Source: Candidatus Marinacidobacterales bacterium
GTDB lineage: Bacteria > Acidobacteriota > Vicinamibacteria > Marinacidobacterales > DATDRI01
DNA length: 64,000 nt
Assembly: GCA_965226495.1 (NCBI GenBank)
Contig: OZ245365.1
Span: 2,528,001-2,592,000 of the forward strand
Direction of reading: 5' to 3'
Shown: one piece after another, positions 3,866-24,283 of the stretch
How positions within the stretch are numbered: position 1 is the stretch's first letter
Layout: each line of letters opens with the position of its first letter
Notes under the pieces: generated by a model
What the model was told of the DNA's origin: nothing
Seen by the model: the letters and a program-made list of their open reading frames with translations, nothing else
Databases searched by the model: none
Translations under genes and position numbers: made by a program

Positions 3866-5270
3866 GTGAAAAAAACAGTCCTTCTCTTCGCGTTGATCTT
3901 TCCTTGTTTCCCCGCCTTTGCACATTCTACGCAGAGCTCCAACCAGCTCGGGAACAGGGACACTCAGAACTTGTTCGAAACGATAGACGAGAATAGACAG
4001 CGCCATATCTCTTTCCTGAAGAGGCTGGTTGAGGCCACAGAGGCTGGTTGAGGCCACAAAGGAAGGCGAGGAGAGTGTTCAACGTGTCGTAGCTGAGAGG
4101 TTCAAGGAACTTGGTTGCAAAGTTGACGTTCTGAGGATCCTCCCAACAAGCCTCAAGCTTAAGAAGCAGTTCGTATCGTCGGACCTTATCGATCTGACCG
4201 AACGCGTCACCGTAGTCTGTACGATCAAAGGCTCAGCCGAAGGCAAAAGTCTCCTGTTTTTCGCTCACCCCGATAGCCAGCCGGTGACTTCGACGCCTCA
4301 AGACGGGCATCGTGATCCATTCAAGGCGACCATCGTAGGCGATAAGATCTTCGGATGGGGTGTAGCAGACGACCTGGCAGGTGTTGCCATCATGGCCGAG
4401 GCCGTCGACGCAGTACTAACCGCGGGATTGCATCCCCGGGGGGACGTGATTCTGGGTAGCACTGCGAGCAAGAGAAATGCACTAGGTATCATAGCCCTGC
4501 TGAGCAAGGGCTACCATGCAGACGCCTCTATTTATGTTCACCCCGCCGAGTCCGGTGCAGGATTGAACGAAATCAAAGCCTACGCCTCCGGTATGCTCAG
4601 ATTCCGAATCACGATCTCCGGCCGACAGCCCAGCACAACGGAGCCTGATCAAACGGCGTTCGCTCACCTTGGAACCAGTCCCATCAATAAAGCGAATTTG
4701 ATCATGCAGGCTTTGGAGGAACTCGACGCCAGGCGTGGCGAAAGAATCTACCACAAGGCTATAGATGCAGCCGTTGGAAGATCGACTAATCTCCTAATCG
4801 GTCATATTAGCTGCGGAGACGCCAAACGGATCTACCAGATGCCGAACGAATGCGTGATTAGTGCGAGCATAACATTCCCACCGAATGAGGAGCTCAGCGC
4901 GGTGAGGAAAGTCGTTCAGAGCACCGTTGCCGAGGCCGCTGACACCGACCCCTGGCTCGCCCAGCACCCACCATCCATAGACTGGATTTTCGGAGCCCCA
5001 GGCGTGGAAGTACCCACCGACCATCCGTTGTATCAAACGGTTAGTGACGCCATGCGAGCCGCGACGGCTAGAACGCCTCATCTCAATCCGCTCCACTCGG
5101 CAAGCGATATTCGAAATCCAATTCTCTTTAGCGGCATCCCTACTGTTGGTATTGGTCCGCTTGGGGGAGGCTTGAAAGTGACAGGAGGAGAAGACGAGTG
5201 GGTTGATCTCGAGGACTACATTACCGCGATCAAGGTAGGCGCAAAAGTCATCGTAGAATGGTGTCGGTAG
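3866..5270 (+). pseudogene. M20/ArgE-DapE family deacylase split by a 19-bp tandem duplication
   Basis: ORF 3866-4051 (signal peptide ...FLKRLVEAT) and ORF 4029-5270 (LVEATKEG..., FAHPD, GWGVADD) join into one ORF if one copy of gaggctggttgaggccaca is removed. Confidence 0.8.
4021..4058 (+). repeat. Perfect 19-bp tandem duplication
   Basis: gaggctggttgaggccaca at 4021-4039 and 4040-4058. Confidence 0.95.
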
Positions 5271-5341
5271 CTCTCACGGAAAACCAAACAGGGTCCCGAC
5301 GCTTGTTGGCCGCTTTGCGTCTCTACCTTCGCGTATTCTTG

Positions 5342-5369
5342 TTGACATGTGGAAAAACTGATCTATCCT
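5342..5369 (+). promoter_or_regulatory. Sigma70-like promoter of DUF885 gene (also 9434-9461)
   Basis: TTGACA-16 nt-TATCCT. Confidence 0.55.
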
Positions 5370-5535
5370 ACATTGCCCAACGGCGCGGTGTTCCAGTCCA
5401 CGGGTCCCCGCTAGGCCCGGCGCTCATGACGCCTGTTACTGAATTTCCTCCACTAAACGACATCAAAGCGGCTGGTTCAACCCGCCTTCGGCGCCTCGAA
5501 TCAACGGCTCTCGAATCTTGTCTCGGAGGAACGTC

Positions 5536-7230
5536 ATGAAACGCTTACGAGTATCAAAAATCGCGATCGGCCTGCTTGGCGTGTGCCTCCCCCTCGCCGC
5601 CCAAGGTACTTCGCAAAGCGGTTACCAACAGTTGGTCACCCTCGACAAAGAGTTCCTGGAATTCGCGAAACCCAAGCAAGTCGACGGCATCCCGGACTAC
5701 GGTTCCGAGGCGATGAAGGCGCAGAAGAAAGGCCTGGAAAACCTTCGGCAGCGTTTGGCGGCCATCGACGCCGACTCCTGGCCGACTAACCAAAAGGTGG
5801 ACTATCTCCTGGTGTGGGCCAGGCTCAATGAGCTCGACTTCGCCCACCGCGTGATGCGACCCTGGGCCCGAGACCCGACGCTCTACCTCGACCTGGTGAA
5901 CCGTTTGCCCTATATCGAGGTTCCCGTCCCGGAAGGCAAAGCGGCTCCGGCAGGTCCGAGAAAACTTCATCCGGTTATCCCGCGCATGTCGAAGACCGAG
6001 TTCCGCAACAAGTTACAAGCGGTGCCCGAGATCATGGCCGAGGCCCAGACCAACCTGACGGTTCCCGTGGGAGAGCTCGCCCATATCACACTTTTCCATC
6101 TAGAGAATTTCGACGGTGTGGGAGCGCGGGAGCCCTACCGCGATGAGCCGCCTGACGGCACCATCGGTTGGTATCAAGACTTGTGTGAGCGGCTCGCGCA
6201 ACACCAATCGGACCTCGTCTCCGATTGCCAAAACGCCCTCAAGGCCCTCGAAGGCTATCGGGATTGGCTCAAGGCGAAGGTCGACGAGATGCCCCAGTCG
6301 GCGGCCATCGGAATAGACAATTTCAACTGGTACCTCAAGTACGTCCGGCTCGTACCTTTCACGGTGGACGAGTTGGAAGCGCATGGCGAGCGGGAGCTGC
6401 AGCGCTACCGCGTCAGTTACATCATTGAGCGGAACAAGAATCGCAACTTACCCGAGCTCAAACTGACAGAGTCCAGAGAAGAGCACGAGGAGCGGACACG
6501 GAAAGCGGAGCAGAAGATTCGAGCTCTTATTGCCTGGCAGGACCTCTTGACCATCCCGGACTATATGCCCCCGGAGTTCGAAACCGACGTGTTCTGGAGC
6601 TCGAGAGCGCCGATCAAACGGCACTTCTGGGAGGAGATTCAGTTCCGGAACGCGCTCAACAACCACATCCACGCGTCCATCCCCGGACATCGTTTCGACG
6701 TAAGGCTCCGGGACCACCTCACCAGCCCCATCCGTCGTACCTATAATGACTGGAATCGCAGGCAAGGATGGGCAGTCTATCTCGAGGAGATGTTCGTACT
6801 GGCCGGTCTCACCGATGACAACCCTCGCGCCGCCGAGCTCTTCTACGCTGCTCTCATGAAACGGGCAAGCCGGATCTTCGCAGAGACGAAAATGCACAGT
6901 GGCGAGTTCACGCTGGCCGAGGCCAATCAGTTGATGATTGACTCCGTTCCCTTCATGGAAGAGGACTTAGGGCGTTACGACCTGGAGGGTTATCTACGCC
7001 GCCCCGGCGGGGGGAGCAGCTACCAGATTGGGAAAATACAAGTCGAACAATTAATGTTCGATCGGGCAACGCAGCTGGGAGATGAGTTCAATCTGAAGGC
7101 CTTCCACGACGAATTTCTGTCCAAGGGCATCATCCCGGTAACCTTGATTCGCTGGGAAATGACCGGTTTGGACGATGAAGTAAAGCCGCTGTGGGTAGAA
7201 GCAGTTGGGCCGCAACCGTCGGAGGATTAG
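5536..7230 (+). CDS. DUF885 family exported protein, copy 1
   Basis: Signal peptide; IPGH, GWAVYLEE and SYQIGKIQ...LGDEFNLKAFHDEFL..G.IP motifs; GGAGG RBS before ATG 5536. Confidence 0.85.
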   Translation: MKRLRVSKIAIGLLGVCLPLAAQGTSQSGYQQLVTLDKEFLEFAKPKQVDGIPDYGSEAMKAQKKGLENLRQRLAAIDADSWPTNQKVDYLLVWARLNELDFAHRVMRPWARDPTLYLDLVNRLPYIEVPVPEGKAAPAGPRKLHPVIPRMSKTEFRNKLQAVPEIMAEAQTNLTVPVGELAHITLFHLENFDGVGAREPYRDEPPDGTIGWYQDLCERLAQHQSDLVSDCQNALKALEGYRDWLKAKVDEMPQSAAIGIDNFNWYLKYVRLVPFTVDELEAHGERELQRYRVSYIIERNKNRNLPELKLTESREEHEERTRKAEQKIRALIAWQDLLTIPDYMPPEFETDVFWSSRAPIKRHFWEEIQFRNALNNHIHASIPGHRFDVRLRDHLTSPIRRTYNDWNRRQGWAVYLEEMFVLAGLTDDNPRAAELFYAALMKRASRIFAETKMHSGEFTLAEANQLMIDSVPFMEEDLGRYDLEGYLRRPGGGSSYQIGKIQVEQLMFDRATQLGDEFNLKAFHDEFLSKGIIPVTLIRWEMTGLDDEVKPLWVEAVGPQPSED

Positions 7231-7607
7231 GCTCCGTCTAGAACATTTTTATGATCTTTTTTTAGAAGGTAAATCTAATACTGAACTTGACATACCTATT
7301 CTGATCAACCGTTAAGCATAGTACTGCCTAAGGCATTATATATGTCGATAAAAGCGCCCAGCTTTCCGAAGTCTCAAATCCCTTCGGGTCGCAGCTATAC
7401 ATGAGTTGAGTAAGCATGTCGCTCTTGCTCCCGAATGCGCCGAAAAGAAGGCTGTCGTTCGTGGACCACCATTCAAACTCTCAACCTATAAGAAAAGACA
7501 TGGAAAAGACAAAGAACTTAGACAACTTTTTAAAAATCGGTTCTTAAAAACATCGTTTTTCAACGTCGGTTTTTAAGGAAAAATATTCTTTCAAAAAGGA
7601 GGACGTA

Positions 7608-8813
7608 ATGAAAAAAAGATTTAAGACGTTACGAAACGTCCGATTATTCCCTTTCCTCATCATGCTTATGGCCATAGTGCTTATAAGTAGCTGCTCCCCA
7701 TCAGAACCTAATCCGTTCGATGTTAGTATTACCCATGTCCCTTCGGTTAACTATGCTGCCCCACAAGGAATCTACCTGGAACCGGAATCTTCTAAATGGG
7801 CATATCCCACAAGTCCATATGCTTACACTCAAAGTCTTATCTGGTTCCTCCACTTGGTTTTCGAGTCACAGGAAGACGATACTCTTAGTTTTGAAGAGGT
7901 AGAAGCCTTATTTAAACGTGAGGGTGAAGTCCTTTGGAAAGAAACATTCTCCAGGGAATACCTCAGGCGGATGGAATGGATAAAGGGTCCTTTCGAGATG
8001 ACTACCGAATATTTCTTAACGAAAATCAATATGGGAAAAGACATGATATCACGTGAAAAGGATATCACGTCGGAACTTCCTGCTGGAGGAACAATATCTT
8101 GGGTACGCATACCCTTTGCTCGTCCCTGGTTTGCACAGATTGACCGCATCGACATGAGATTCAAAGTTCGCGATTCTAAGGGTAATTCGGGTGTGCTTTC
8201 ACATTCGATACCGATTACCAATTATAAGCAAAAGGTAAAGCTGCGACTTCCATTCTCTGGCGTTTGGCAAGTAAGGGCCGGAAATGATCTGACCGCCGGT
8301 CATCGCCGGACCGGCTTGAACGGTTTAAGTACAACCGGCTGGGATTTTATGAAGGTTGATCCACCTGCCGATCCCGGCTATAGGGAGCCGATACTGGCAG
8401 CGGGCGATGGAGTGGTAGTGGATGTACGGAATGACATTACGAGAGTGGGTATGGAGGAACCGTACGAGCCTGAATTCTTGAAAAAAGATACCGACCGTTT
8501 TATTGACTCTTTTGTTTCCATAGATCATGGGAATGGTGAGTATTCTTTGTACGCTCATTTAGATAAAGGTGGCATAGTCGTAAAAGTAGGAGACAAAGTA
8601 AAGGCAGGCCAAGTTATTGCCCGGGACCGTTTGACTGAACATGGCTATCTCGGGTTGCATTTTAATCTGATGACGAAAGGGGAGTGGATCGAAGGGAAAG
8701 GACTACCAGCCATGTTTAGCGACTTCGAACGAGTCCGGGCGGGCAAAGTTCCTGTGTATAAGATAGAGCTTGGAAACCCGATGTCGCAATGGTACGTCCG
8801 TCACATCGAGTAA
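7608..8813 (+). CDS. M23 family peptidase-like lipoprotein in AT-rich DNA
   Basis: Lipobox ISSC; PILAAGDGVVV, IDHGNGEYSLYAHL and VKVGDKVKAGQVIA motifs; AAGGAGG RBS. Confidence 0.8.
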   Translation: MKKRFKTLRNVRLFPFLIMLMAIVLISSCSPSEPNPFDVSITHVPSVNYAAPQGIYLEPESSKWAYPTSPYAYTQSLIWFLHLVFESQEDDTLSFEEVEALFKREGEVLWKETFSREYLRRMEWIKGPFEMTTEYFLTKINMGKDMISREKDITSELPAGGTISWVRIPFARPWFAQIDRIDMRFKVRDSKGNSGVLSHSIPITNYKQKVKLRLPFSGVWQVRAGNDLTAGHRRTGLNGLSTTGWDFMKVDPPADPGYREPILAAGDGVVVDVRNDITRVGMEEPYEPEFLKKDTDRFIDSFVSIDHGNGEYSLYAHLDKGGIVVKVGDKVKAGQVIARDRLTEHGYLGLHFNLMTKGEWIEGKGLPAMFSDFERVRAGKVPVYKIELGNPMSQWYVRHIE

Positions 8814-9301
8814 TAAAATCTAACAAAAAAGAAGAGAATGGGACGATGACAGGCGACGCCTGATGGCGTCCTACGACAAGCTTGAGGAGAGAGGCATTTG
8901 CATACCGATCAATGAGACCTCTTTTAAGGACACGACACGCGCCCACCCCTTGTCGGCTGCGGTGGATGCAGACATGAAGGATAGGCAATTTCGGAACCAC
9001 TGCTACAAATACATGAATCCGAAGTTCCCGCTACCGAAGCGCGGTATTCAGGCGCTCGGAGCACAGAGCAGCGAAGAAGTCTGCGCCACGGTAGGCTCGG
9101 GTGAAGTCTTGAAAGGCGGCGGTGTAATCATGCGCACGCCTACATCATCCCTACTTCTGGCAGGGCTCAATGTCATGGCACATACTCACGGAGGTGGCCA
9201 CCACCGAGTCGAGCCGATCTCCAGCACCAGATTCTCGCCGACGTCAAGATGCTGAGGCCCTACTTTCTCCACCACCGCGAACTCCTCGGTAGGGAGTGGC
9301 C

Positions 9302-11332
9302 CGAGGACTACATTACCGCGATCAAGGTAGGCGCAAAAGTCATCGTAGAATGGTGTCGGTAGCTCTCACGGAAAACCAAACAGGGTCCCGACGCTTGTTG
9401 GCCGCTTTGCGTCTCTGCCTTCGCGTATTCTTGTTGACATGTAGAAAAACTGATCTATCCTACATTGCCCAACGGCGCGGTGTTCCAGTCCACGGGTCCC
9501 CGCTAGGCCCGGCGCTCATGACGCCTGTTACTGAATTTCCTCCACTAAACGACATCAAAGCGGCTGGTTCAACCCGCCTTCGGCGCCTCGAATCAACGGC
9601 TCTCGAATCTTGTCTCGGAGGAACGTCATGAAACGCTTACGAGTATCAAAAATCGCGATCGGCCTGCTTGGCGTGTGCCTCCCCCTCGCCGCCCAAGGTA
9701 CTTCGCAAAGCGGTTACCAACAGTTGGTCACCCTCGACAAAGAGTTCCTGGAATTCGCGAAACCCAAGCAAGTCGACGGCATCCCGGACTACGGTTCCGA
9801 GGCGATGAAGGCGCAGAAGAAAGGCCTGGAAAACCTTCGGCAGCGTTTGGCGGCCATCGACGCCGACTCCTGGCCGACTAACCAAAAGGTGGACTATCTC
9901 CTGGTGTGGGCCAGGCTCAATGAGCTCGACTTCGCCCACCGCGTGATGCGACCCTGGGCCCGAGACCCGACGCTCTACCTCGACCTGGTGAACCGTTTGC
10001 CCTATATCGAGGTTCCCGTCCCGGAAGGCAAAGCGGCTCCGGCAGGTCCGAGAAAACTTCATCCGGTTATCCCGCGCATGTCGAAGACCGAGTTCCGCAA
10101 CAAGTTACAAGCGGTGCCCGAGATCATGGCCGAGGCCCAGACCAACCTGACGGTTCCCGTGGGAGAGCTCGCCCATATCACACTTTTCCATCTAGAGAAT
10201 TTCGACGGTGTGGGAGCGCGGGAGCCCTACCGCGATGAGCCGCCTGACGGCACCATCGGTTGGTATCAAGACTTGTGTGAGCGGCTCGCGCAACACCAAT
10301 CGGACCTCGTCTCCGATTGCCAAAACGCCCTCAAGGCCCTCGAAGGCTATCGGGATTGGCTCAAGGCGAAGGTCGACGAGATGCCCCAGTCGGCGGCCAT
10401 CGGAATAGACAATTTCAACTGGTACCTCAAGTACGTCCGGCTCGTACCTTTCACGGTGGACGAGTTGGAAGCGCATGGCGAGCGGGAGCTGCAGCGCTAC
10501 CGCGTCAGTTACATCATTGAGCGGAACAAGAATCGCAACTTACCCGAGCTCAAACTGACAGAGTCCAGAGAAGAGCACGAGGAGCGGACACGGAAAGCGG
10601 AGCAGAAGATTCGAGCTCTTATTGCCTGGCAGGACCTCTTGACCATCCCGGACTATATGCCCCCGGAGTTCGAAACCGACGTGTTCTGGAGCTCGAGAGC
10701 GCCGATCAAACGGCACTTCTGGGAGGAGATTCAGTTCCGGAACGCGCTCAACAACCACATCCACGCGTCCATCCCCGGACATCGTTTCGACGTAAGGCTC
10801 CGGGACCACCTCACCAGCCCCATCCGTCGTACCTATAATGACTGGAATCGCAGGCAAGGATGGGCAGTCTATCTCGAGGAGATGTTCGTACTGGCCGGTC
10901 TCACCGATGACAACCCTCGCGCCGCCGAGCTCTTCTACGCTGCTCTCATGAAACGGGCAAGCCGGATCTTCGCAGAGACGAAAATGCACAGTGGCGAGTT
11001 CACGCTGGCCGAGGCCAATCAGTTGATGATTGACTCCGTTCCCTTCATGGAAGAGGACTTAGGGCGTTACGACCTGGAGGGTTATCTACGCCGCCCCGGC
11101 GGGGGGAGCAGCTACCAGATTGGGAAAATACAAGTCGAACAATTAATGTTCGATCGGGCAACGCAGCTGGGAGATGAGTTCAATCTGAAGGCCTTCCACG
11201 ACGAATTTCTGTCCAAGGGCATCATCCCGGTAACCTTGATTCGCTGGGAAATGACCGGTTTGGACGATGAAGTAAAGCCGCTGTGGGTAGAAGCAGTTGG
11301 GCCGCAACCGTCGGAGGATTAGGCTCCGTCTA
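9302..11332 (+). repeat. 2,031-bp direct repeat, copy 2
   Basis: Matches 5210-7240; includes the last ~60 bp of the M20 gene, the promoter and the DUF885 gene. Confidence 0.95.
9628..11322 (+). CDS. DUF885 family exported protein, copy 2 (identical protein)
   Basis: Translation identical to copy 1. Confidence 0.85.
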   Translation: MKRLRVSKIAIGLLGVCLPLAAQGTSQSGYQQLVTLDKEFLEFAKPKQVDGIPDYGSEAMKAQKKGLENLRQRLAAIDADSWPTNQKVDYLLVWARLNELDFAHRVMRPWARDPTLYLDLVNRLPYIEVPVPEGKAAPAGPRKLHPVIPRMSKTEFRNKLQAVPEIMAEAQTNLTVPVGELAHITLFHLENFDGVGAREPYRDEPPDGTIGWYQDLCERLAQHQSDLVSDCQNALKALEGYRDWLKAKVDEMPQSAAIGIDNFNWYLKYVRLVPFTVDELEAHGERELQRYRVSYIIERNKNRNLPELKLTESREEHEERTRKAEQKIRALIAWQDLLTIPDYMPPEFETDVFWSSRAPIKRHFWEEIQFRNALNNHIHASIPGHRFDVRLRDHLTSPIRRTYNDWNRRQGWAVYLEEMFVLAGLTDDNPRAAELFYAALMKRASRIFAETKMHSGEFTLAEANQLMIDSVPFMEEDLGRYDLEGYLRRPGGGSSYQIGKIQVEQLMFDRATQLGDEFNLKAFHDEFLSKGIIPVTLIRWEMTGLDDEVKPLWVEAVGPQPSED

Positions 11333-13162: not shown

Positions 13163-14986
13163 TCACTTGCTGCCGAGGGTTCCTCCCAGGCGTACCAGCT
13201 CTTGGTTGTGCGGCCATCGCGCGAGCCCATCCTCGAGAAACCGGCGGGCCTCGCTTTCCTCACCCGACTGCACGTAGGCCCGGACGACTCTCACACAGAC
13301 TTCGGGTGATGGAGCGAGCTCGAACGCCTTTCGCAGGAGTTGGAGGGCTTCCCGGTGGCGCCCAACTTGACTGAGGGCGGTGCCCAGATTGAGGTAAGCC
13401 TTCACGAGCTCCGGCTCATAGGATATAGCCGCCTCAAAGGACCTGATAGCTGCGGACAAGTTACCGGAGCGTGCCTCCAGCGTGCCGAGGTTGTTGTGGG
13501 CCTCGGCAAAGTAGGGGCGTAGCTCGAGGGCGCGACGATACGCATCTCGTGCCTTGGCCTGCTGCCCGAGCGCCGCCGAGGCGTAACCGAGATTGTTATG
13601 GGCGTCCGCCAACCGCGGGTTCAAAGCGACCGCTTCCTCGAACGCGCGTCCCGCCTCTTTCCATCTTTGTTGGTTGAGCATCACCGTCCCGAGGTTGTAG
13701 TGTACCTGAGCCGCCGACTGACCCTTCTCGATGGCCTGTCGATAGAGCACCTCGGCGTGGCTCCAGTAGCCGCGCTCCGCGAACGCGTTTCCGAGCGCAA
13801 AATCGTTCCGAAAGAACTCGCCCACCAAATTGATGCCGTCGAAAGGGAGCCCGAGATGCTCCCGCTCTTCGGCGGTCCGAGGGATCCGTCTCGAGTCGGT
13901 CACAATTTCATCGACCCCGACAGCGCCGCGGTAGACTTTGACGATCCTTCCTCGCTCGTCGATAAGAAAGCTCATTGGAACACCCAAGTCCGAAACGCGG
14001 TCGTAAAGATTGGAGGCCAGAACCTTATAGACCCCCACCATCTCCTCATTGGCAATGAGCAGCGGGAAGTCGAGACCGAGCTCTGCCTGGAACGCGCGCA
14101 CAGCTTGCTCCGCCGGTGGCTCATCCACCGAGACCGCCAAGAGGGTGACGCCCGACGCCTCCAGCTCCGATCTCTTGGCCTTGAAATCGAGGAGCTCACC
14201 GCGGCAAGGGGCACACCAGCTCGCCCAGAAGTTCAGTAGCACCTTGCTTCCCTCGAGACTCGCAAGGCTGTGCGAATTGCCGTCTAAGTCGTCCAACGTG
14301 AAATCAGGGGCGGGCAAAGGATCCAGAAGCCACGTTCCCCGACGGGAGGCAGGCATGGCCCTGTCGGCTTTCGGAGCCGGTGTGACTCGGGATGGCTGGA
14401 AACGCTCTCGCCTGTAGTTCTCTTCCCCTTCGACCACGTAGATGACGTGATTGGCTGGGACGGACCGTAACGTTTGCACGAATCCGTTCGTCCAACGTAT
14501 GACGACCTTTTCTATTTTCCCCAAGCCTTCGAGGCCAAAATGCAAAGCCCGGCTACTTTGGGATAAATAGCCGCTCGCCGCACTCACGGTCTTTTGTCGG
14601 GTGGCGCCGGCTGCGTGCACCTCGACGCGCACGCCGATGGCGTCACGGTTGCTCGAGCGACCCTCCAAGACGAACCTAACAGCGGCCCGCCCGTTTGCCA
14701 GGTCGTTCCGCAGAAGCCGTAGCTGAGGCGCGTTTCGACTCTTGAGTGCAATATCGATGTCACCATCTAGGTCATAGTCGAATGCGACGAACGCTCGCCC
14801 GTCTTGGGGAAAGTCGAGCCCGCTGATACCTGAGGCGTCGATGAAGGTGCCATCACCGTTGTTCAAGTAGAAACAATTGCGCTCGTGTCCGCTCCAGCTT
14901 CCGTCACCGCGGATGAGTCGATCGATCGCGCTCCAGCTTCGCTCGTAAAGCTCCACCGCTTTTCTGTCATTGGGTGAGCGCGACAC
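13163..14986 (-). CDS. ASPIC/UnbV, redoxin and TPR portion (conventional call if there is no readthrough)
   Basis: SNRDAIGVRV...GYLSQSSRALHFGL (UnbV); LLNFWASWCAPC (TlpA-like); C-terminal TPR repeats; no obvious RBS before GTG 14986. Confidence 0.75.
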   Translation of the reverse strand: MSRSPNDRKAVELYERSWSAIDRLIRGDGSWSGHERNCFYLNNGDGTFIDASGISGLDFPQDGRAFVAFDYDLDGDIDIALKSRNAPQLRLLRNDLANGRAAVRFVLEGRSSNRDAIGVRVEVHAAGATRQKTVSAASGYLSQSSRALHFGLEGLGKIEKVVIRWTNGFVQTLRSVPANHVIYVVEGEENYRRERFQPSRVTPAPKADRAMPASRRGTWLLDPLPAPDFTLDDLDGNSHSLASLEGSKVLLNFWASWCAPCRGELLDFKAKRSELEASGVTLLAVSVDEPPAEQAVRAFQAELGLDFPLLIANEEMVGVYKVLASNLYDRVSDLGVPMSFLIDERGRIVKVYRGAVGVDEIVTDSRRIPRTAEEREHLGLPFDGINLVGEFFRNDFALGNAFAERGYWSHAEVLYRQAIEKGQSAAQVHYNLGTVMLNQQRWKEAGRAFEEAVALNPRLADAHNNLGYASAALGQQAKARDAYRRALELRPYFAEAHNNLGTLEARSGNLSAAIRSFEAAISYEPELVKAYLNLGTALSQVGRHREALQLLRKAFELAPSPEVCVRVVRAYVQSGEESEARRFLEDGLARWPHNQELVRLGGTLGSK

Positions 14987-16828
14987 GACCTGCCGCCAAA
15001 AGAAACTTCAAAGGTCCTTCGTAGAGGTATTGGTAATGTAACCGTTGACGGTATAGAGATCGTCATTCCCGTCGTTGTCGCAATCGAAAAAATCGCTACT
15101 CCAGGCCCATCGCCCGAACTCCACTCCTGCCTCCTCAGCCACCTCTTCGAACCTTTCTCCCCCTAGATTGCGAAAAAGACTGTTTCCCTTGGCATGCCGT
15201 ACGTAGCTGCTCTGTGCCTCTCCGGCGTGGTAACCCGCCTGCGCAGTTAGGCGCAGCCCAGCAGAGGACCACATGTTGCCGATATAGAGATCATCCTTGC
15301 CATCGAGATCGTAGTCCGTCCAGGCCACACTCATGCCGGCCCCGATATCCTCTACCCCCGCCTCTCGACTCATCTCGACGAAAGTGCCGCTCACGTTCCG
15401 ATACAGATTGTTACGGCCGAAATCGTTCGCCACATAAAGGTCTAGCCAGCCATCGTTGTCGAAATCACCCCAAGAAGAGGAAAAACTGAAGCGATCGTTT
15501 CCGGCCTCTAGACCCGAACCAGAGGTGACGTCTTCGAACCTGCCGTCACCCTCATTCCGGAAGAGTATGTTTGGAGGCCCATTGGTGGCATCATGATAGG
15601 GGTAAGGCAGCGCAAGTGCGGTGTCCTCTCCGGGAGCGTCGACGTATCGGTAGCAGGTGACATAGAGGTCGAGGTCGCCGTCATTGTCATAGTCTGCCAG
15701 AGATGCCGAGCTAAGAGTCGCCTTGACTCCCTCCCTTCTCTCCAACGAATTGCGTGAAGGATCGAATCTCCCTTCGCCGTCGTTCAAGAGAAGCACGACG
15801 TTCCAGTTTTGGATGACCACAAGTAGATCTTGATCGCCGTCATTATCGACGTCACCGAAGAGGCCCATGGAGGTCCGTTCTAGCATGTCGATCCCCGACG
15901 CTTGGCTGATGTCCTCAAACGTCCCGTCGCCCCGGTTGCGGTAGAGCCGGTTGGGGAGTCCTTGCGGCTGGGCCACGAAAAGATCCTCGAGTCGGTCGTT
16001 ATCGACATCCCCCACCGCGAGTCCATTGTGCCCGTAGAGATCAACTCCACTGGCAGCGTCCATCCCAGCGCGGAAGTAATCGATACCCAGCCGCATCTGT
16101 TCCCAGTAGGAGGCTTCCTCGGCCCAGGCGATGCTACTCACGTCGGTAAAGAAGGGCGCCGCCGAATCGCCGCCGGTGGCGGGCTCGAGCTCGAGGCGCT
16201 TCATTTTCCAGACGCCATCGGAAAGGACCCAGTCGAGTCGCCACCAACCTAAACGGGAAATGATCTCGTTCCGCGCCCCTCGCCCCACCAGGTCGTACAA
16301 GACGCGAGTCCGTGCCTGGGCCGGAGCAGCATCCGAGGGAGCTCCCAGCTCGATGCTCACGATCTTGAACTTGAGTTCAGAAAAGGAATTGAAATCTTGA
16401 ACCCAAGACAAAAATTCTGCAGGCGCCTGGGCCGCGCCCACCGAAAGCTCATCTTTGTAGCTAAACCGGTAGAGTCGAACCCCGGGTGGTGCGGCGACCG
16501 GTTCGCTCGATACCGGAGCTAAAGATGTTGTCCGAAACTCCGCCCCGACCAGCGAGGCGATCGGTTCTGGGCGACGAGCTCGTAAGGCTTCTTCGAGTAC
16601 GTGAAGTCTCTTGTCGAGTGCTTCCGTGACCACCTCGGTCGCCCACCGATCTTGTTCGGCATCCACCGCGACGAAGAGGGACTCGACTGCGGAAGGCTTA
16701 GAAACGTAACCCCGGACTGGGAAGATTTGCTGGCTGTCTTCCGATTGTGGGTACCCTTCTGAATCGAGCGTCGGATGGATTAGGAGTAACAGGGCCACAC
16801 ATACCAAACGAGGGAACGACTCGACCAT
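13163..16828 (-). CDS. Putative UGA-readthrough (selenocysteine) protein: signal peptide, FG-GAP/CRTAC1-like repeats, ASPIC/UnbV, redoxin (WCAPC) and TPR, ~1,221 aa
   Basis: ORFs 15008-16939 and 13163-14986 are in the same frame, separated by TGA (15008-15010) and 7 sense codons: ...STKDL-TGA-SFFWRQVVSRSP...; FG-GAP repeats continue on both sides; SECIS-like hairpin follows. Confidence 0.7.
14980..15010 (-). promoter_or_regulatory. Candidate bacterial SECIS element after in-frame UGA
   Basis: UGA-AGUUUCUUUUG-GCGGCA-GGUCG-UGUCGC: 6-bp stem, G-first loop starting 18 nt after UGA; shares GCAGGUC with the E. coli fdhF SECIS. Confidence 0.6.
15008..16828 (-). CDS. FG-GAP/CRTAC1-like repeat portion (conventional call)
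   Basis: Multiple DxDNDGxxDL Ca-binding repeats; signal-like N-terminus from ATG 16828. Confidence 0.8.
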   Translation of the reverse strand: MVESFPRLVCVALLLLIHPTLDSEGYPQSEDSQQIFPVRGYVSKPSAVESLFVAVDAEQDRWATEVVTEALDKRLHVLEEALRARRPEPIASLVGAEFRTTSLAPVSSEPVAAPPGVRLYRFSYKDELSVGAAQAPAEFLSWVQDFNSFSELKFKIVSIELGAPSDAAPAQARTRVLYDLVGRGARNEIISRLGWWRLDWVLSDGVWKMKRLELEPATGGDSAAPFFTDVSSIAWAEEASYWEQMRLGIDYFRAGMDAASGVDLYGHNGLAVGDVDNDRLEDLFVAQPQGLPNRLYRNRGDGTFEDISQASGIDMLERTSMGLFGDVDNDGDQDLLVVIQNWNVVLLLNDGEGRFDPSRNSLERREGVKATLSSASLADYDNDGDLDLYVTCYRYVDAPGEDTALALPYPYHDATNGPPNILFRNEGDGRFEDVTSGSGLEAGNDRFSFSSSWGDFDNDGWLDLYVANDFGRNNLYRNVSGTFVEMSREAGVEDIGAGMSVAWTDYDLDGKDDLYIGNMWSSAGLRLTAQAGYHAGEAQSSYVRHAKGNSLFRNLGGERFEEVAEEAGVEFGRWAWSSDFFDCDNDGNDDLYTVNGYITNTSTKDL

Positions 16829-17085
16829 ATTGGAATCTCTGGCTCCGACCCGAAAGCGGTGTGTGCTCGCTGGCAGTATCCTATCACGGGCACACGAAAA
16901 AAAGGGCCTCGCGATGGGGATCCCCCCCTGCGATGCCATCGGACGGAGATTGACTTCCCCCGGCTACGGCAGCATAGTGTCGGCGCACCGGGCCGGCGCA
17001 TCCGTAATTCTCCACCATCCTCCTCGGTCACACAGTCCCCCGGCAAAGGGCGCCCATCCCCGGTAAGCCGTTGTGGAGTCATATC

Positions 17086-20151: not shown

Positions 20152-22083
20152 TCATGCCGGCTCCAGGCGGACCGCGGTCTCGTTGTATGCGACCCCCCCG
20201 CCCGGAGTGAATCGATTCTTGAGAAGTGGGCTCATGGAGTGCCCGGTCTTCCACCATCCGCCCTTACGGCACACCACCAGATCCTGTCTTTGTGCGGCGT
20301 CTAGCTCTAGTGACACCTCCACGCTTCCCTCGGGAGAGCGGAGGCGCGCTTTTCGATCGGACGCCACACCGAATCGGGCCGCAGTCTCCGGGTGTACCTT
20401 GACACTCGGAAGTCCGGAGGGCCTCATGTTGACGAGCTGCGTGTTGGTCCCCTTCCGGGTGGCGCCAGAGACAAGGCGAAGCGGAAACTCATCGTCGATC
20501 GCGGGTGCGATGGGCGTGCTGGTGGGAAACAAGAAACGCTCCGATGGGGTCTCGAACTTCCCTCCTTTATAAGGTAGCCGCTCCGCCTCCGGGAAGACCT
20601 GAGAACCTTCCTTCAAGACCTGATAGCTCCAGCCGTTGTCGTTCCACGGCGTGACCGCGCGGTCTATCCATTCCGCCGCGGTTCCGGCCATCCCTTGACC
20701 AAAGCCAAGCGCCTCGGCGAGCGCCTGGTAGATGGCTAGATCCGATTTCACTTCACCGGGCGCGGGAATGACGGGCTGGGTCACGCTCGCGGTGAAATGG
20801 GAACCGCTGAAGGCCAGGTCTTCATCCTCGAGGAACGTCGTCACTGGAAGCACCAGATGCGCGCACTCGGCGGTATCGGTGAGGAATTGATCCACCACGA
20901 GATTGAACTCCCGCTTCATCAGAGCTTCCCGCATGGTCTCGGGTCGTGCGTGCTGGGCAACCGGGTTGGCCCCGGTGATGAAAGTGGCGGTGATCGGTGG
21001 ATCTTCGAAGGTCTCTAGGCTCTTCGCGATGTGGCCGACCGGGACGTTCCGGTGCTTGGCATCGAGCTCTTTACCCGTGATGATCGGATCTAGATCGCCC
21101 CAAGGCCATCGGGCAAAGTTCACCCCGGCTCCAGGGACACCGATGTTCCCGGTGAGAACGGCTAGGGCGGAGACGTGGGCGACCACTTCCGCACCGTGGG
21201 AGTACTGTTGTAGACCGACTCCGGGATAAATCGTCGCGGGACGTCGGCGCGCCATCGCGTCGGCTAGGGCGTGCACTTCCTCAACCGTGACGTCGGCCCG
21301 CCGCGCTCGCTCGGCAACTTGGACCGAGGTCACTTCCTTGCGGTAAGCTTCGAAGCCTTCGGTGTGATCGGAAATGAAACCCTCGTCCGCCCATCCCTCC
21401 GTCAGAATGACGCTCGCCACGGCCTGCGCCAGCTCGTGATCGAAACCGGGACGGGGCTTGATCTGGACGTCCGCTAGGACAGTGCTCTCCGTCACGACCG
21501 GATCCACGAGGAGAATCCGAACGCCTTTCTGTCTCGCCTTTCGGAGCCACGGAACCAGATGGATCTGCGTCGCGGCCGGGTTTCTTCCCCATAGAACGAT
21601 CGTCCGGCTATTCAACACATCCCGCGTGTCGTGACATAGGACGTTCCCGAACGAGCGGATGAAGGCGTAGATCCCTTCACCGGCGCAGTAATTGCCGTGC
21701 GCGCGGGAAGCCCCTCCCCAGAGGCCGATGAAACGATCGTATAGATGCTTGAGGGCTCCCATGGAGCCATGTCCTTTGAGTGTGAAGAGTGTCCAGGGGC
21801 CGTAGCGTTCTCTGAGACGCGAGAGCTCGGAGCCGGCGTACTCTATCGCTTGCTTCCAAGAGATCCGCTCGAACCCGTTGGGCCCGCGGCGCAAAGGGTA
21901 AAGCAGTCGATCCTTGTGGTAGACGCGCTCCGCATACTTCGAGACCTTGTGGCAGAGAAAGCCTCGAGTAATGGCGTGGTCCGGATCGCCCTGGAGTCGG
22001 ACTAGCCGATCGCCATCGACGTGTGCGAGGACCGAGCAGGTATCCAGGCAGTCGATGATGCAGGTCGTGCGAATGATCTTCAC
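20152..22083 (-). CDS. Molybdopterin-dependent oxidoreductase, single subunit
   Basis: CxxDCxxxC...GFLCHK 4Fe-4S motif; WGRNP, DQFLTDTA and C-terminal molybdopterin dinucleotide domain; start uncertain (GTG 22083). Confidence 0.85.
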   Translation of the reverse strand: MKIIRTTCIIDCLDTCSVLAHVDGDRLVRLQGDPDHAITRGFLCHKVSKYAERVYHKDRLLYPLRRGPNGFERISWKQAIEYAGSELSRLRERYGPWTLFTLKGHGSMGALKHLYDRFIGLWGGASRAHGNYCAGEGIYAFIRSFGNVLCHDTRDVLNSRTIVLWGRNPAATQIHLVPWLRKARQKGVRILLVDPVVTESTVLADVQIKPRPGFDHELAQAVASVILTEGWADEGFISDHTEGFEAYRKEVTSVQVAERARRADVTVEEVHALADAMARRRPATIYPGVGLQQYSHGAEVVAHVSALAVLTGNIGVPGAGVNFARWPWGDLDPIITGKELDAKHRNVPVGHIAKSLETFEDPPITATFITGANPVAQHARPETMREALMKREFNLVVDQFLTDTAECAHLVLPVTTFLEDEDLAFSGSHFTASVTQPVIPAPGEVKSDLAIYQALAEALGFGQGMAGTAAEWIDRAVTPWNDNGWSYQVLKEGSQVFPEAERLPYKGGKFETPSERFLFPTSTPIAPAIDDEFPLRLVSGATRKGTNTQLVNMRPSGLPSVKVHPETAARFGVASDRKARLRSPEGSVEVSLELDAAQRQDLVVCRKGGWWKTGHSMSPLLKNRFTPGGGVAYNETAVRLEPA

Positions 22084-22106
22084 GTTGGCGATTGTACTAT
22101 CCCGCT

Positions 22107-22625
22107 TCACCGGCGACGGCCGCCACCCGTTTGGGCACGCTGGGCCTTCAACTCCCAAGGCGGCACCGGCTTGGGAAGCGACCAGATGCCAATGCCCGCG
22201 GCCCGAGCGTTCGATTCTGCTTTCGCTAGAGCAGGATCTGCCGAGTACCTCTTGTAGTGCCAGGCAAGCCCTGCCCGGACCAGTTCAACCGAAACGTCTT
22301 GGCCATCGATGAAGACCCGAGCCACAAGGCGTCCATAGCGATCGGTTTCCTTGACTCGAAGGGTGACGACCTTGCCGAGCACCATGTTGGCTGTGAACTT
22401 CTTCGCTCTCGCGCTAAAGTCATCCCCGTACTCCGGGCAGTCCACTCCCTCGAGGCGTATCTTTAGTGTCTTGCCGCCTCGCAGGACTTTGATAGTGTCG
22501 CCGTCGGTTATGCCGACGCACGTTCCACTAGGAGTTTCGCAGGCAAGCGAAAGATGGGCAAAGACGAGGCTGGCGAGCAGCCAGGAACCCGTACCGGGCC
22601 ATTGGGGCAGGGATCTTGTTTTCAA
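22107..22625 (-). CDS. Thermonuclease (SNase) family protein, probable lipoprotein
   Basis: DGDT, IRLEGVDCPE, DRYGRLVA and GIWS motifs; start uncertain. Confidence 0.85.
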   Translation of the reverse strand: MKTRSLPQWPGTGSWLLASLVFAHLSLACETPSGTCVGITDGDTIKVLRGGKTLKIRLEGVDCPEYGDDFSARAKKFTANMVLGKVVTLRVKETDRYGRLVARVFIDGQDVSVELVRAGLAWHYKRYSADPALAKAESNARAAGIGIWSLPKPVPPWELKAQRAQTGGGRRR

Positions 22626-22683: not shown

Positions 22684-24126
22684 CTAGAGCTGCGCCACGA
22701 AGTCGTATATGGACCGGACACCAAATGCCGAAAGGACGACACCGGCCATGAAGAGCGCTCCCGCGAGCACCGCGGACATCTGAAAATGTTTCGGCAGGAA
22801 TCGCCGATCCACCCACAACATAGCAAAACACCACAAGCCGGAAGCCAAGATGCTGAGAAGGGCCGCCGGAGTCACGAGCGTCACTGGGTCCCATCCGGTC
22901 CAGATGAGCAAGAGACCGCTCAGAGTCCCGTAGACGATCACAAACCGCCGGACGCCCCGAATCGAGTCTCCTTTCAGTCGAGCCGAGACGACGCGCCCAC
23001 ATTCGTAGAGCGCCCGCGATTGAAGCTCGAACGATCCATAGATCGTTCCAAGGAACACGGTGAGAATGCCCACGAGGTAGAGGGGCGCCAGTTTCGGATG
23101 GAGCTCGGTGAGGAAGTTCGCCTGAACACTCAGGAGCTCGGAAGCGTGAGGCACCAAGTGAGCTGGAGAGAGAATCATCGCCCCGAGTACGAGGAAAATG
23201 ACCGAGAACAGCGCGACCAAAGTGAATGAGAGCAACATGTCGGTCAAGGGTGCCCGCAGCCAGAGTTTTCCCTTGAGGCGTTCGTCCTGCGAGTCAGGCA
23301 GCGGAGAGTCCTGGTCCTCCTCGGCCTCCGTCAATCTTCCCGCGAGGCCCCATTTCTTGTCGCGTAAGAAACTCAAATACGCGATGTAGTCGGTGCTGCT
23401 TCCTCCGATCAAGCCCACAAAGGTCATCACCTCGACCCAGTTCGGACGGGAGGCAATCGTCGGGTAGGCCGCCGTCACCCATTCCGGATAGTCCGGGATC
23501 GAAATGACGAAGACGTTCTTGAGAAGCATCCCGAGATCGGGCCGCAGTGCCATAAACGAAGCGACGATGAGACCGAGGAAAAATAGGATGATGACCTTCT
23601 GGGCCAACTCGAGGGTTCGGTACGTGCTTCCCAGCGCGCCGAGCCCACAGAGGATGAGAACCGCGCTCGAGATCAGATTCAAGTTGATTCCGTAATCGAC
23701 AGAATCGGCGCCGCGCCCGAGGAGCTGCATCAAGAGTGTCGCGAGAGCCTTGGGCAGCGCGGAGAAGGTGGCCGACATGATGACGAGCGCCACGATTCCC
23801 AAGAGGATAGGAAACCATGCCCGCGGTCCCTTCATCTTCGCCCAGTAGTGCGCCGGGTGTCTTCCCGTGAGCGTGATGACCCGCATGCTCGAGTAGACCT
23901 GCACTGCTTTCAGGGCCGACACCAGAAGGATGCACCAGATTAGAGCGAAGCCGAAGATGGCTCCCCCACGCGAGGCGAAGATCGTCTCGCCACCACCGAC
24001 GGTGACGGATGCGATGATGGCACCCGGCCCGTAGAACTTGAGATAGCCGAGCGGATTCTTAGAGCGGAGCTCCTTCGGAACCGGGGGGAACTTTCTGGCG
24101 TCGGGGCTCGGTGTGGGTGAAGTCAT
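22684..24126 (-). CDS. NRAMP-family transporter-like membrane protein
   Basis: GPGAIIASVTVGGGE..ASRGGAIFGF N-terminal motif; about 11 hydrophobic segments. Confidence 0.75.
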   Translation of the reverse strand: MTSPTPSPDARKFPPVPKELRSKNPLGYLKFYGPGAIIASVTVGGGETIFASRGGAIFGFALIWCILLVSALKAVQVYSSMRVITLTGRHPAHYWAKMKGPRAWFPILLGIVALVIMSATFSALPKALATLLMQLLGRGADSVDYGINLNLISSAVLILCGLGALGSTYRTLELAQKVIILFFLGLIVASFMALRPDLGMLLKNVFVISIPDYPEWVTAAYPTIASRPNWVEVMTFVGLIGGSSTDYIAYLSFLRDKKWGLAGRLTEAEEDQDSPLPDSQDERLKGKLWLRAPLTDMLLSFTLVALFSVIFLVLGAMILSPAHLVPHASELLSVQANFLTELHPKLAPLYLVGILTVFLGTIYGSFELQSRALYECGRVVSARLKGDSIRGVRRFVIVYGTLSGLLLIWTGWDPVTLVTPAALLSILASGLWCFAMLWVDRRFLPKHFQMSAVLAGALFMAGVVLSAFGVRSIYDFVAQL

Positions 24127-24283
24127 GGGCGACTCACGATGCCGCGAGAGCATAAGCCATGACCGCCCTCACCGCCAGGTCGAGACTCCCCCGGTGCTCT
24201 TGGCGCTAGGGGCCGCAGACCGTTAGAATCCGCCTTCGAGTCCTATTTAGGTCTAGATGTGATCCAACAAGGAGGTAGGAAAG

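Follow-up and report, generated by a model that had tools for sequence, protein, structure and literature searches.

A probable selenoprotein gene with an in-frame UGA inside a CRTAC1-like β-propeller in a Candidatus Marinacidobacterales genome

The window considered here is a stretch of 64,000 nucleotides from a Candidatus Marinacidobacterales bacterium (contig OZ245365.1, positions 2,528,001 to 2,592,000 of the forward strand), whose minus strand contains, between positions 13163 and 16828, what is very probably a single selenoprotein gene, the UGA at 15008-15010 being a genuine selenocysteine (Sec) codon associated with a selenocysteine insertion sequence (SECIS), as the comparison of sequences indicates. 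Two open reading frames (ORFs) of the minus strand, 15008..16939 (643 aa) and 13163..14986 (607 aa), lie in one frame with the TGA at 15008-15010 as their sole separator, in agreement with the first-pass annotation made from the letters of this DNA. The codons around the junction, AAG GAC CTT TGA AGT TTC TTT TGG CGG CAG GTC GTG TCG CGC, correspond to KDL-TGA-SFFWRQVVSR, and the translation of the junction reads NGYITNTSTKDL-TGA-SFFWRQVVSRSP. Read through from the ATG at 16828, the whole gene (13163..16828, minus strand) comprises 1,221 codons, with one internal TGA as codon 607 (15008..15010, minus strand) and a terminal TGA at 13163-13165, which agrees with the fusion protein of about 1,221 aa proposed at first. 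This ATG, conserved in orthologs, is also the start of a public entry of 606 residues corresponding to the N-terminal half, which public collections treat as a protein in its own right and place in a cluster of 3 members; a version starting at 16939 was not found in these collections. The deposition of the 606-residue half alone indicates that gene callers cut the gene at the TGA, as had been anticipated.

The stop codon is neither restricted to this genome nor replaced by TAA or TAG in homologs, two findings that would have spoken for an ordinary stop. The nucleotide-level set consists of 114 loci, namely 76 of the TGA type, 14 in which the codon is for Cys and 24 in which it is some other sense codon, and TGA occupies the same column in 76/76 TGA-type loci, distributed over two phyla, never TAA or TAG being encountered. 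Among 40 relatives examined together with the own genome (match threshold E <= 1e-30), exactly one TGA occurs in 21/21 match rows from 13 genomes, and in the tblastn alignments its column is the same for all 21 of them. These rows belong to three clades, the ortholog clade with KDL-TGA-SFFWRQVV (82-100% identity), a second clade with KDT-TGA-SLFWRHVV (about 40% identity), and a third clade with GD[TS]-TGA-S[IT]FWRAVA, and the own genome possesses one gene per clade, all three with the TGA at this column. A larger sample of 401 genomes across the window's own phylum (match threshold E <= 1e-40) yielded a match in 78 genomes, with one TGA in 71 of the 99 rows and none in 28 according to a hand count, and the named homologs come from Terriglobia, Bryobacterales and other Acidobacteriota. 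The counts of this sample include three unpublished genomes on which no conclusion rests: G089 contributes the TGA-type locus L056, G192 a single non-TGA row, and G064 a selA match only. The own-phylum loci of the TGA type amount to 66, from 52 genomes, 37 genera and 21 families. The second phylum was sampled through 251 genomes from the phylum of a Phycisphaerales genome (Planctomycetota), among which 44 contain a match, with one TGA in 79 of the 86 rows (hand count) and up to 8 rows per genome. In the loci L026-L075, the open frames extend over 300-667 codons upstream and 320-659 codons downstream, often reaching the end of the locus. The family accordingly displays an in-frame UGA conserved at one position with an open frame on either side, which is a distinctive trait of selenoprotein genes.

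Two side observations concern the copy number of these genes. The own-genome paralogs, L042 (G000:C1:4671004-4671894) and L046 (G000:C1:3214391-3215353), of about 950-1,055 codons each, both have a TGA at the same column, a hairpin of their own and a C-terminal CxxC redoxin domain, and are devoid of a TPR array. Planctomycetota genomes with 6-8 junction-fragment matches point to a large family expansion, with one TGA in 8/8 rows of G643, 6/6 rows of G672 and 4/6 rows of G514, the other 2 having none.

The TGA also occurs in contigs of other studies, the stretch being present in 20 public runs from 9 studies. Two of the matching contigs, X2 record 1 and X3 record 9, come from different studies, either of which may be the source of the assembly, and show 0 differences over positions 14700-15300. 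The TGA is also bridged, again with 0 differences, by X20 record 7 (14814-15071), a metatranscriptome contig, which is no proof of transcription as such RNA libraries can contain DNA. The sense codon that might have been hidden behind the TGA is not found in these other contigs, all of which show the identical TGA. A sequencing error, or a recent nonsense mutation that left a pseudogene, could be imagined on the grounds that a single base separates TGA from TCA (Ser), TGC/TGT (Cys) and GGA (Gly), codons that are all found at the column in homologs. However, the same TGA in every TGA-type locus of two phyla, the intact and conserved state of both halves, the identity with contigs of other studies and the TGA shared by three own-genome paralogs leave this explanation with hardly any probability, and the comparison with relatives refutes it. 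In the same runs, many other contigs match 14973-15017 only, with 1-3 differences and diverging flanks, and the summed depth over this short segment climbs from 5-25 to 89-288, a peak which probably results from the many paralogs and relatives present in the same samples. That contigs are alike at 14973-15017 only implies a strong conservation, at the nucleotide level, of a stretch of some 40 nt that includes the UGA and the hairpin.

Besides the codon itself, the whole machinery devoted to selenocysteine is encoded in the host genome, which consists of one contig of 6.34 Mb. A tRNA-Sec (selC) was identified both by Rfam (70.9 bits versus a gathering score of 47) and by ARAGORN (tRNA-SeC, anticodon tca), and selB (377.7 bits) and selA (570.1 bits) score above their curated cut-offs, as does selD (332.6 bits), which contains one in-frame TGA. 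The concern expressed at first that the host could lack this machinery does not apply, and tRNA-Sec, SelA, SelB and SelD occur together as is required for making selenoproteins. A selenoprotein is also encoded by the host selD (L019, G000:C1:5696278-5700210), whose TGA, at position 1531 of the locus, lies in SAG-U-ASKLSP and is followed after 11 nt by the hairpin GAGUCC-AGU-GGA(C)CUC. A hand cross-tabulation of the phylum sample shows selA in 51/55 TGA-type genomes; the remaining four (G121, G358, G270 and G295) gave no selA match above cut-off, and all four possess a tRNA-Sec of 68-76 bits and a selB above cut-off. The UGA forms are thus confined to genomes endowed with Sec machinery (55/55), as the first-pass annotation had expected of a selenoprotein. 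Among the genomes with non-TGA forms only (n=23), selA occurs in 18, and in five sense-codon-only genomes of one family, 99-100% complete, no selA, selB or tRNA-Sec was found.

The third line of evidence comes from the hairpin located just 3' of the UGA. An 11-nt spacer (14997..15007, minus strand), identical in length to that of the own selD, separates the UGA from a SECIS-like hairpin, GCGGCA/GGUCG/UGUCGC (14980..14996, minus strand), consisting of the arms 14991-14996 and 14980-14985 and of the loop GGUCG at 14986-14990; counted from the TGA, the heptamer GCAGGTC begins at a distance of 14 nt. The gene fdhF of E. coli is the archetype of bacterial in-ORF SECIS with SelB-dependent UGA recoding. 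With these in-ORF elements, including that of the own selD, the family hairpin shares the succession of a UGA, 11 nt and a short G+C-rich hairpin with G/U in the apical loop, but it is minimal, made of 6-8 bp and a loop of 3-5 nt. Those pairs that the encoded peptide leaves free depend on synonymous sites, which are fixed in the TGA-type loci, with GTC for the first Val in most loci, GTG for the second Val and a G as last base of the codon after it. In the non-TGA and Cys-type genes the Val codons vary, and an AGA/AGG Arg codon, which would break the stem, occurs in several genes of the Cys type. The third base of the Arg codon covaries with the first base of the codon located four codons downstream (CGG/UCG, CGA/UCG, CGC/GCG, CGU/ACG, CGG/CCG). 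In the covariation set of 66 sequences, 60 of them distinct, the pair 18-28 appears as CG 37, GU 10, UA 4, AU 2, GC 2 and other 5 times, and the pair 20-26 as AU 55 times and GC once. Paired cells represent 87.5% of the total, versus 79.7% in shuffles, none of which (0/500) reaches the observed value, and versus 23-69% when the partner is slid. Depending on the clade, the stem may even consist of another sequence, that of the third clade being wholly different (GCGUGC-GGUC-GCACGC) and that of some planctomycete genes reading GCGACG-CGUGA-CGUCGC. Counting simple stems that start 12-19 nt from the codon, at least 5 bp are formed in 65/66 TGA-type versus 9/24 non-TGA loci, and at least 6 bp in 56/66 versus 4/24. 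The mean minimum free energy (MFE) is -11.6 kcal/mol for the TGA-type and -7.2 kcal/mol for the non-TGA loci (Mann-Whitney p 2.7e-8, a value overstated by kinship among the sequences). As judged by comparison, a hairpin just 3' of the UGA is conserved as a structure, as in other bacterial selenoprotein genes.

The codon, the hairpin and the machinery have also to be confronted with two readings in which no selenium is inserted. A conserved programmed termination in a split gene, in which the UGA stops translation, the halves are separate and the hairpin serves as a pause or restart signal, would account for the public annotation, which has the N-terminal half alone, and for a GTG at 14986, inside the hairpin, which opens the downstream ORF. 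Against this stand the location of the stop inside one β-propeller that is modelled at high confidence as a single unit, the lack of any Shine-Dalgarno-like sequence before the GTG and of a signal peptide proper to the downstream half, the occurrence of sense-codon and Cys-codon homologs as single chains of 1,150-1,300 residues, and the exclusive use of TGA in genes found only alongside Sec machinery, which together make a split gene very improbable. Selenium-independent read-through, by which a near-cognate tRNA (Trp, Cys or Arg) would read the UGA with the aid of the hairpin, is hardly easier to sustain and is regarded as quite improbable. Hairpins after stop codons can indeed promote read-through, and the column is tolerant in homologs, which contain S, A, G, N, D or E; however, all TGA-type genomes possess the Sec machinery whereas only sense codons are found in the five Sec-less genomes, the hairpin agrees in spacing and shape with the element of the own selD, and Trp is found at the column in 0/24 non-TGA loci and in 0/109 close database homologs.

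The residues that replace the Sec in related proteins were examined as another sign of a selenoprotein reading. A scan of the contigs with a profile carrying Cys at the Sec column retrieved Cys-codon homologs (L130 was spurious), and the UGA/Cys pairing proposed as a check was found in 14 loci with TGC at the column, mostly from Bryobacterales, with one each from Polarisedimenticolia, Phycisphaerales, other Planctomycetota and an unclassified lineage. At the same column, the 24 non-TGA loci have E 6, N 5, S 3, A 3, G 2, D 2, Y 1, L 1 and Q 1, and the close full-length database homologs (n=109, about 52-58% identity, same architecture), from which eleven more distant and poorly aligned rows were left out, have S 66, A 31, G 7, N 3, E 1 and C 1. 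On these aligned residues, Sec/Cys pairs of the kind expected for a selenoprotein exist (14 TGC loci, 1/109 database homologs), and Cys is a minority replacement. Serine, asparagine, aspartic acid and glycine are good helix N-cap residues, and their suitability for such a position would explain what stands in for Sec.

With respect to its organization, the protein consists of the succession of domains that had been read from the sequence, FG-GAP, ASPIC-UnbV, redoxin and TPR, all four of which are borne out by Pfam matches. A signal-peptide-like segment with a hydrophobic core, MVESFPRLVCVALLLLIHPTL (16765..16828, minus strand), together with the ResA/TlpA-type domain, suggests that the protein is probably exported. 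The CRTAC1-like FG-GAP β-propeller that contains the Sec (14705..16021, minus strand) was recognized by Pfam FG-GAP_3 (PF13517, 6 stretches, 148 bits), by the AlphaFold model and by Foldseek, and exhibits six D-x-[DN]-x-D-G loops distributed on both sides of the TGA. It is followed by a UnbV_ASPIC domain (residues 730-795; 14444..14641, minus strand; PF07593, 58.3 bits versus a cut-off of 23.4), by a ResA/TlpA-like redoxin domain (residues 839-971; 13916..14314, minus strand; AhpC-TSA 85.6 bits, Redoxin 70.5 bits), whose redox motif CAPC (Cys872 and Cys875; 14204..14215, minus strand) comes 265 residues after the Sec, and by a C-terminal TPR array (residues 1010-1210; 13199..13801, minus strand), supported by Pfam TPR families, by the helical repeats of the model and by Foldseek matches to TPR structures.

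The AlphaFold2 model, built for residues 22-1221 (1,200 residues, model number = gene number minus 21) from a 100-row alignment, has a mean pLDDT (predicted local distance difference test) of 90.1 and a pTM (predicted template modelling score) of 0.89. In this model, the Sec (gene 607, model 586) is the first residue of a helix, 586-596 (U-SFFWRQVV), which is followed by another helix, 605-619, both being located between the propeller strands 569-574 and 631-635 (model numbering), and the CAPC motif (model 851-854, gene 872-875) occurs at the start of helix 852-863. The best match of the model in the PDB according to Foldseek is murine CRTAC1 (9etn_A, E 1.1e-21, TMt 0.73 over 626 columns, 19% identity). 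Both proteins possess an FG-GAP β-propeller followed by a UnbV_ASPIC domain, the combination that characterizes the CRTAC1 / ASPIC-UnbV family (PF13517, PF07593), but the protein of the window differs in the Sec of its propeller and in its additional redoxin domain and TPR array. The next matches are TPR proteins and ResA structures, the latter with TMt 0.82-0.87, a value of 0.87 being reached with 1st9/2f9s. Like the ResA/TlpA oxidoreductases (PDB 1st9, 1su9, 2f9s and 4nmu), the redoxin domain has a thioredoxin fold in which W-C-x-P-C opens a helix, whereas here it represents one domain of a 1,221-residue protein. The fold and the CxxC motif are present, and the NCBIfam ResA model (NF002854) gives 81 bits, below its cut-off of 170, which makes it a related domain rather than an equivalog.

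Taken together with these structural features, the selenoprotein reading leads to the following scheme. As far as a comparison of sequences can tell, SelB and Sec-tRNA(Sec) are recruited by the small hairpin 11 nt after the UGA, along the ordinary bacterial recoding route, and the Sec so inserted opens an α-helix placed in a CRTAC1-like β-propeller bearing calcium loops. At the N-terminus of this helix, it could act as a lone redox-active selenol/selenolate, react with a substrate bound to the propeller or to the TPR array, and be regenerated via a selenenylsulfide formed with the CxxC of the ResA/TlpA-like domain, which is part of the same chain and would itself draw electrons from the usual membrane thiol-reductant systems. 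In lineages deprived of Sec, the position would decay to helix-capping residues (S, A, G, N, D, E) and the CxxC would mostly decay too. As a function, a redox site outside the cytoplasm that the fused CxxC domain recycles is put forward tentatively, being a little less than an even proposition. That the protein represents a new kind of extracytoplasmic selenoenzyme site, in which a lone helix-N-terminal Sec of a calcium-binding propeller is regenerated within the same polypeptide, is a more doubtful suggestion.

The co-occurrence of the Sec with the redoxin motif bears on this proposal. Considering the Sec-type loci with at least 300 residues of downstream sequence, a C-x-x-C occurs 245-295 residues after the Sec in 42/42, including two paralog clades without TPR. 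Among the non-TGA database homologs (n=88), the CxxC is kept in 3, the others having SxxS (39), SxxC (23), AxxC (10) and other forms. Sec is thus never seen without CxxC in these loci, and the few non-Sec forms that keep the motif indicate that CxxC can outlive Sec. On the tree, about 6 changes of the Sec state are counted, at least 3 of them on well-supported branches. The early suggestion that the protein's own redoxin domain might recycle the Sec holds for the co-occurrence of the two, and the relay itself keeps the tentative standing just given to it.

Several observations pull in the other direction and have to be set against a selenoprotein recycled in this way. The evidence for selenium incorporation is comparative in every member of the family, and the background of selA is high, since 300/401 genomes of the phylum sample have it, which limits the power of the co-occurrence with Sec machinery. 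The hairpin of the window taken alone folds with an MFE of -8.9 kcal/mol and a z of 0.12, and 105/200 shuffles fold equally well, so that its reality rests on the comparison with relatives; what had been claimed for it holds as regards position, sequence and conservation beyond codon constraint, but not as regards a stability above chance in the window alone. As it lies inside the highly conserved peptide SFFWRQVV, half of its pairs are dictated by the protein, three of the six being fixed by the conserved WRQVV[SA]R, and five non-Sec loci (L059, L061, L069, L075 and L113) fold as well as the Sec-type ones. In the majority of non-Sec homologs, the column is occupied by S, A, G, N, D or E and not by Cys, which is unusual for a catalytic Sec. 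The CxxC is kept in 5/29 non-Sec loci (L064, L066, L069 and the Cys-types L116 and L118) and was lost only 2 times on the tree. An independent-pairs test of Sec versus CxxC was not significant, and with 2 supported pairs (5 when all branches are taken) it has no power; phylogenetically, the link between Sec and CxxC must be considered as weak. Finally, no Cys of the propeller was found to be co-conserved with the Sec in the alignment of L026-L075. As a separate observation on this alignment, the non-Sec forms are richer in propeller Cys, at residues 286, 321, 339, 391, 451 and 502, where the Sec-type has S, A, G or T, and Cys is found at residue 391 in 17/17 non-TGA versus 13/33 TGA-type loci.

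Some of these points lend plausibility to a real Sec that would be a metal ligand or a selenium-dependent expression switch instead of a redox nucleophile recycled by the CxxC. The propeller offers no partner Cys, non-Sec homologs rarely use Cys, six calcium-type loops are available in the propeller and, as just mentioned, the tree gives little backing to the Sec-CxxC link. However, the CxxC is kept in every Sec-type locus counted, even in the paralog clades without TPR, and the Sec stands in the model at a helix N-terminus, which is the usual place of a redox-active Cys or Sec. Such another role is thus a possible but rather unlikely explanation, which would leave the selenoprotein nature of the gene unchanged.

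Regarding its position among known systems, the gene belongs, on the sequence comparisons reported above, to a widespread bacterial selenoprotein family which is missing from NCBIfam and from the table of PMC13188914, its recoding mechanism being the ordinary bacterial one. Table 1 of the review PMC13188914 (2026), the fullest table of prokaryotic selenoproteins in print, contains 119 selenoprotein families, among which there is no FG-GAP, VCBS, ASPIC, CRTAC1 or propeller entry, and the initial statement that no characterised selenoprotein family has this architecture agrees with that table. The same five terms are absent from the main texts of PMC13188914, of the BSepDB paper (PMC13326102) and of the deep-Sep paper (PMC12013277), and ASPIC, FG-GAP and VCBS are absent from the main text of PMC4807772, whose candidate selenoproteins are given in its S9 Table. 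Full-text literature searches returned nothing relevant to an FG-GAP/ASPIC selenoprotein family, and neither the N-terminal half nor the junction is matched by any family of NCBIfam. Other selenoproteins with a ResA-like domain are the WAxxUGC family (NF041054) and the families listed as 'UGC-containing TlpA' and 'Redoxin family UxxC' (PMC13188914 Table 1); however, these catalogued TlpA/redoxin selenoproteins have their Sec in the thioredoxin-fold motif, whereas that of the window protein is located 265 residues upstream, in another domain. Membership in the WAxxUGC family was considered and rejected, the match to NF041054 being partial (79.5 bits versus a cut-off of 300) and the motif WASWCAPC containing no U.

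Owing to the cutting of these genes in two by gene callers, the large exported proteins of the whole family are mis-annotated in hundreds of genomes. In addition, the usual search for Sec aligned with Cys would mostly miss the family because most of its non-Sec relatives have Ser, Ala, Gly or Asn, and this search rule may be the reason why it has been overlooked. The family places selenium in an extracytoplasmic β-propeller, outside the thioredoxin-fold contexts that dominate among known selenoproteins. Since as many as 8 copies are present in the genomes of some planctomycetes, it may be of consequence for how much selenium abundant bacteria of soil and sea require. Should the reading as a new kind of selenoenzyme site be true, the family would rank among the commonest selenoprotein families that Acidobacteriota and Planctomycetota of soil and sea possess, and would offer a first biochemical handle on the CRTAC1/ASPIC fold, the function of which is, to our knowledge, poorly understood.

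In its immediate surroundings the gene is isolated and flanked by plus-strand amidohydrolase genes, and the neighbourhood within the window gave no clue to its function. Elsewhere in the window, a segment of ~2 kb with a 570-aa DUF885 gene occurs twice, at approximately 5190-7240 and 9282-11332, the two copies being 4,092 bp apart and about 100% identical with an M23 peptidase gene (7608-8813) between them, and may be either a real duplication or an assembly artefact. On the minus strand, a molybdopterin oxidoreductase gene (Fe4S4, Molybdopterin and Molydop_binding) lies beside a weak Nramp-like ORF, the two occupying 20152-22158 and 22684-24153.

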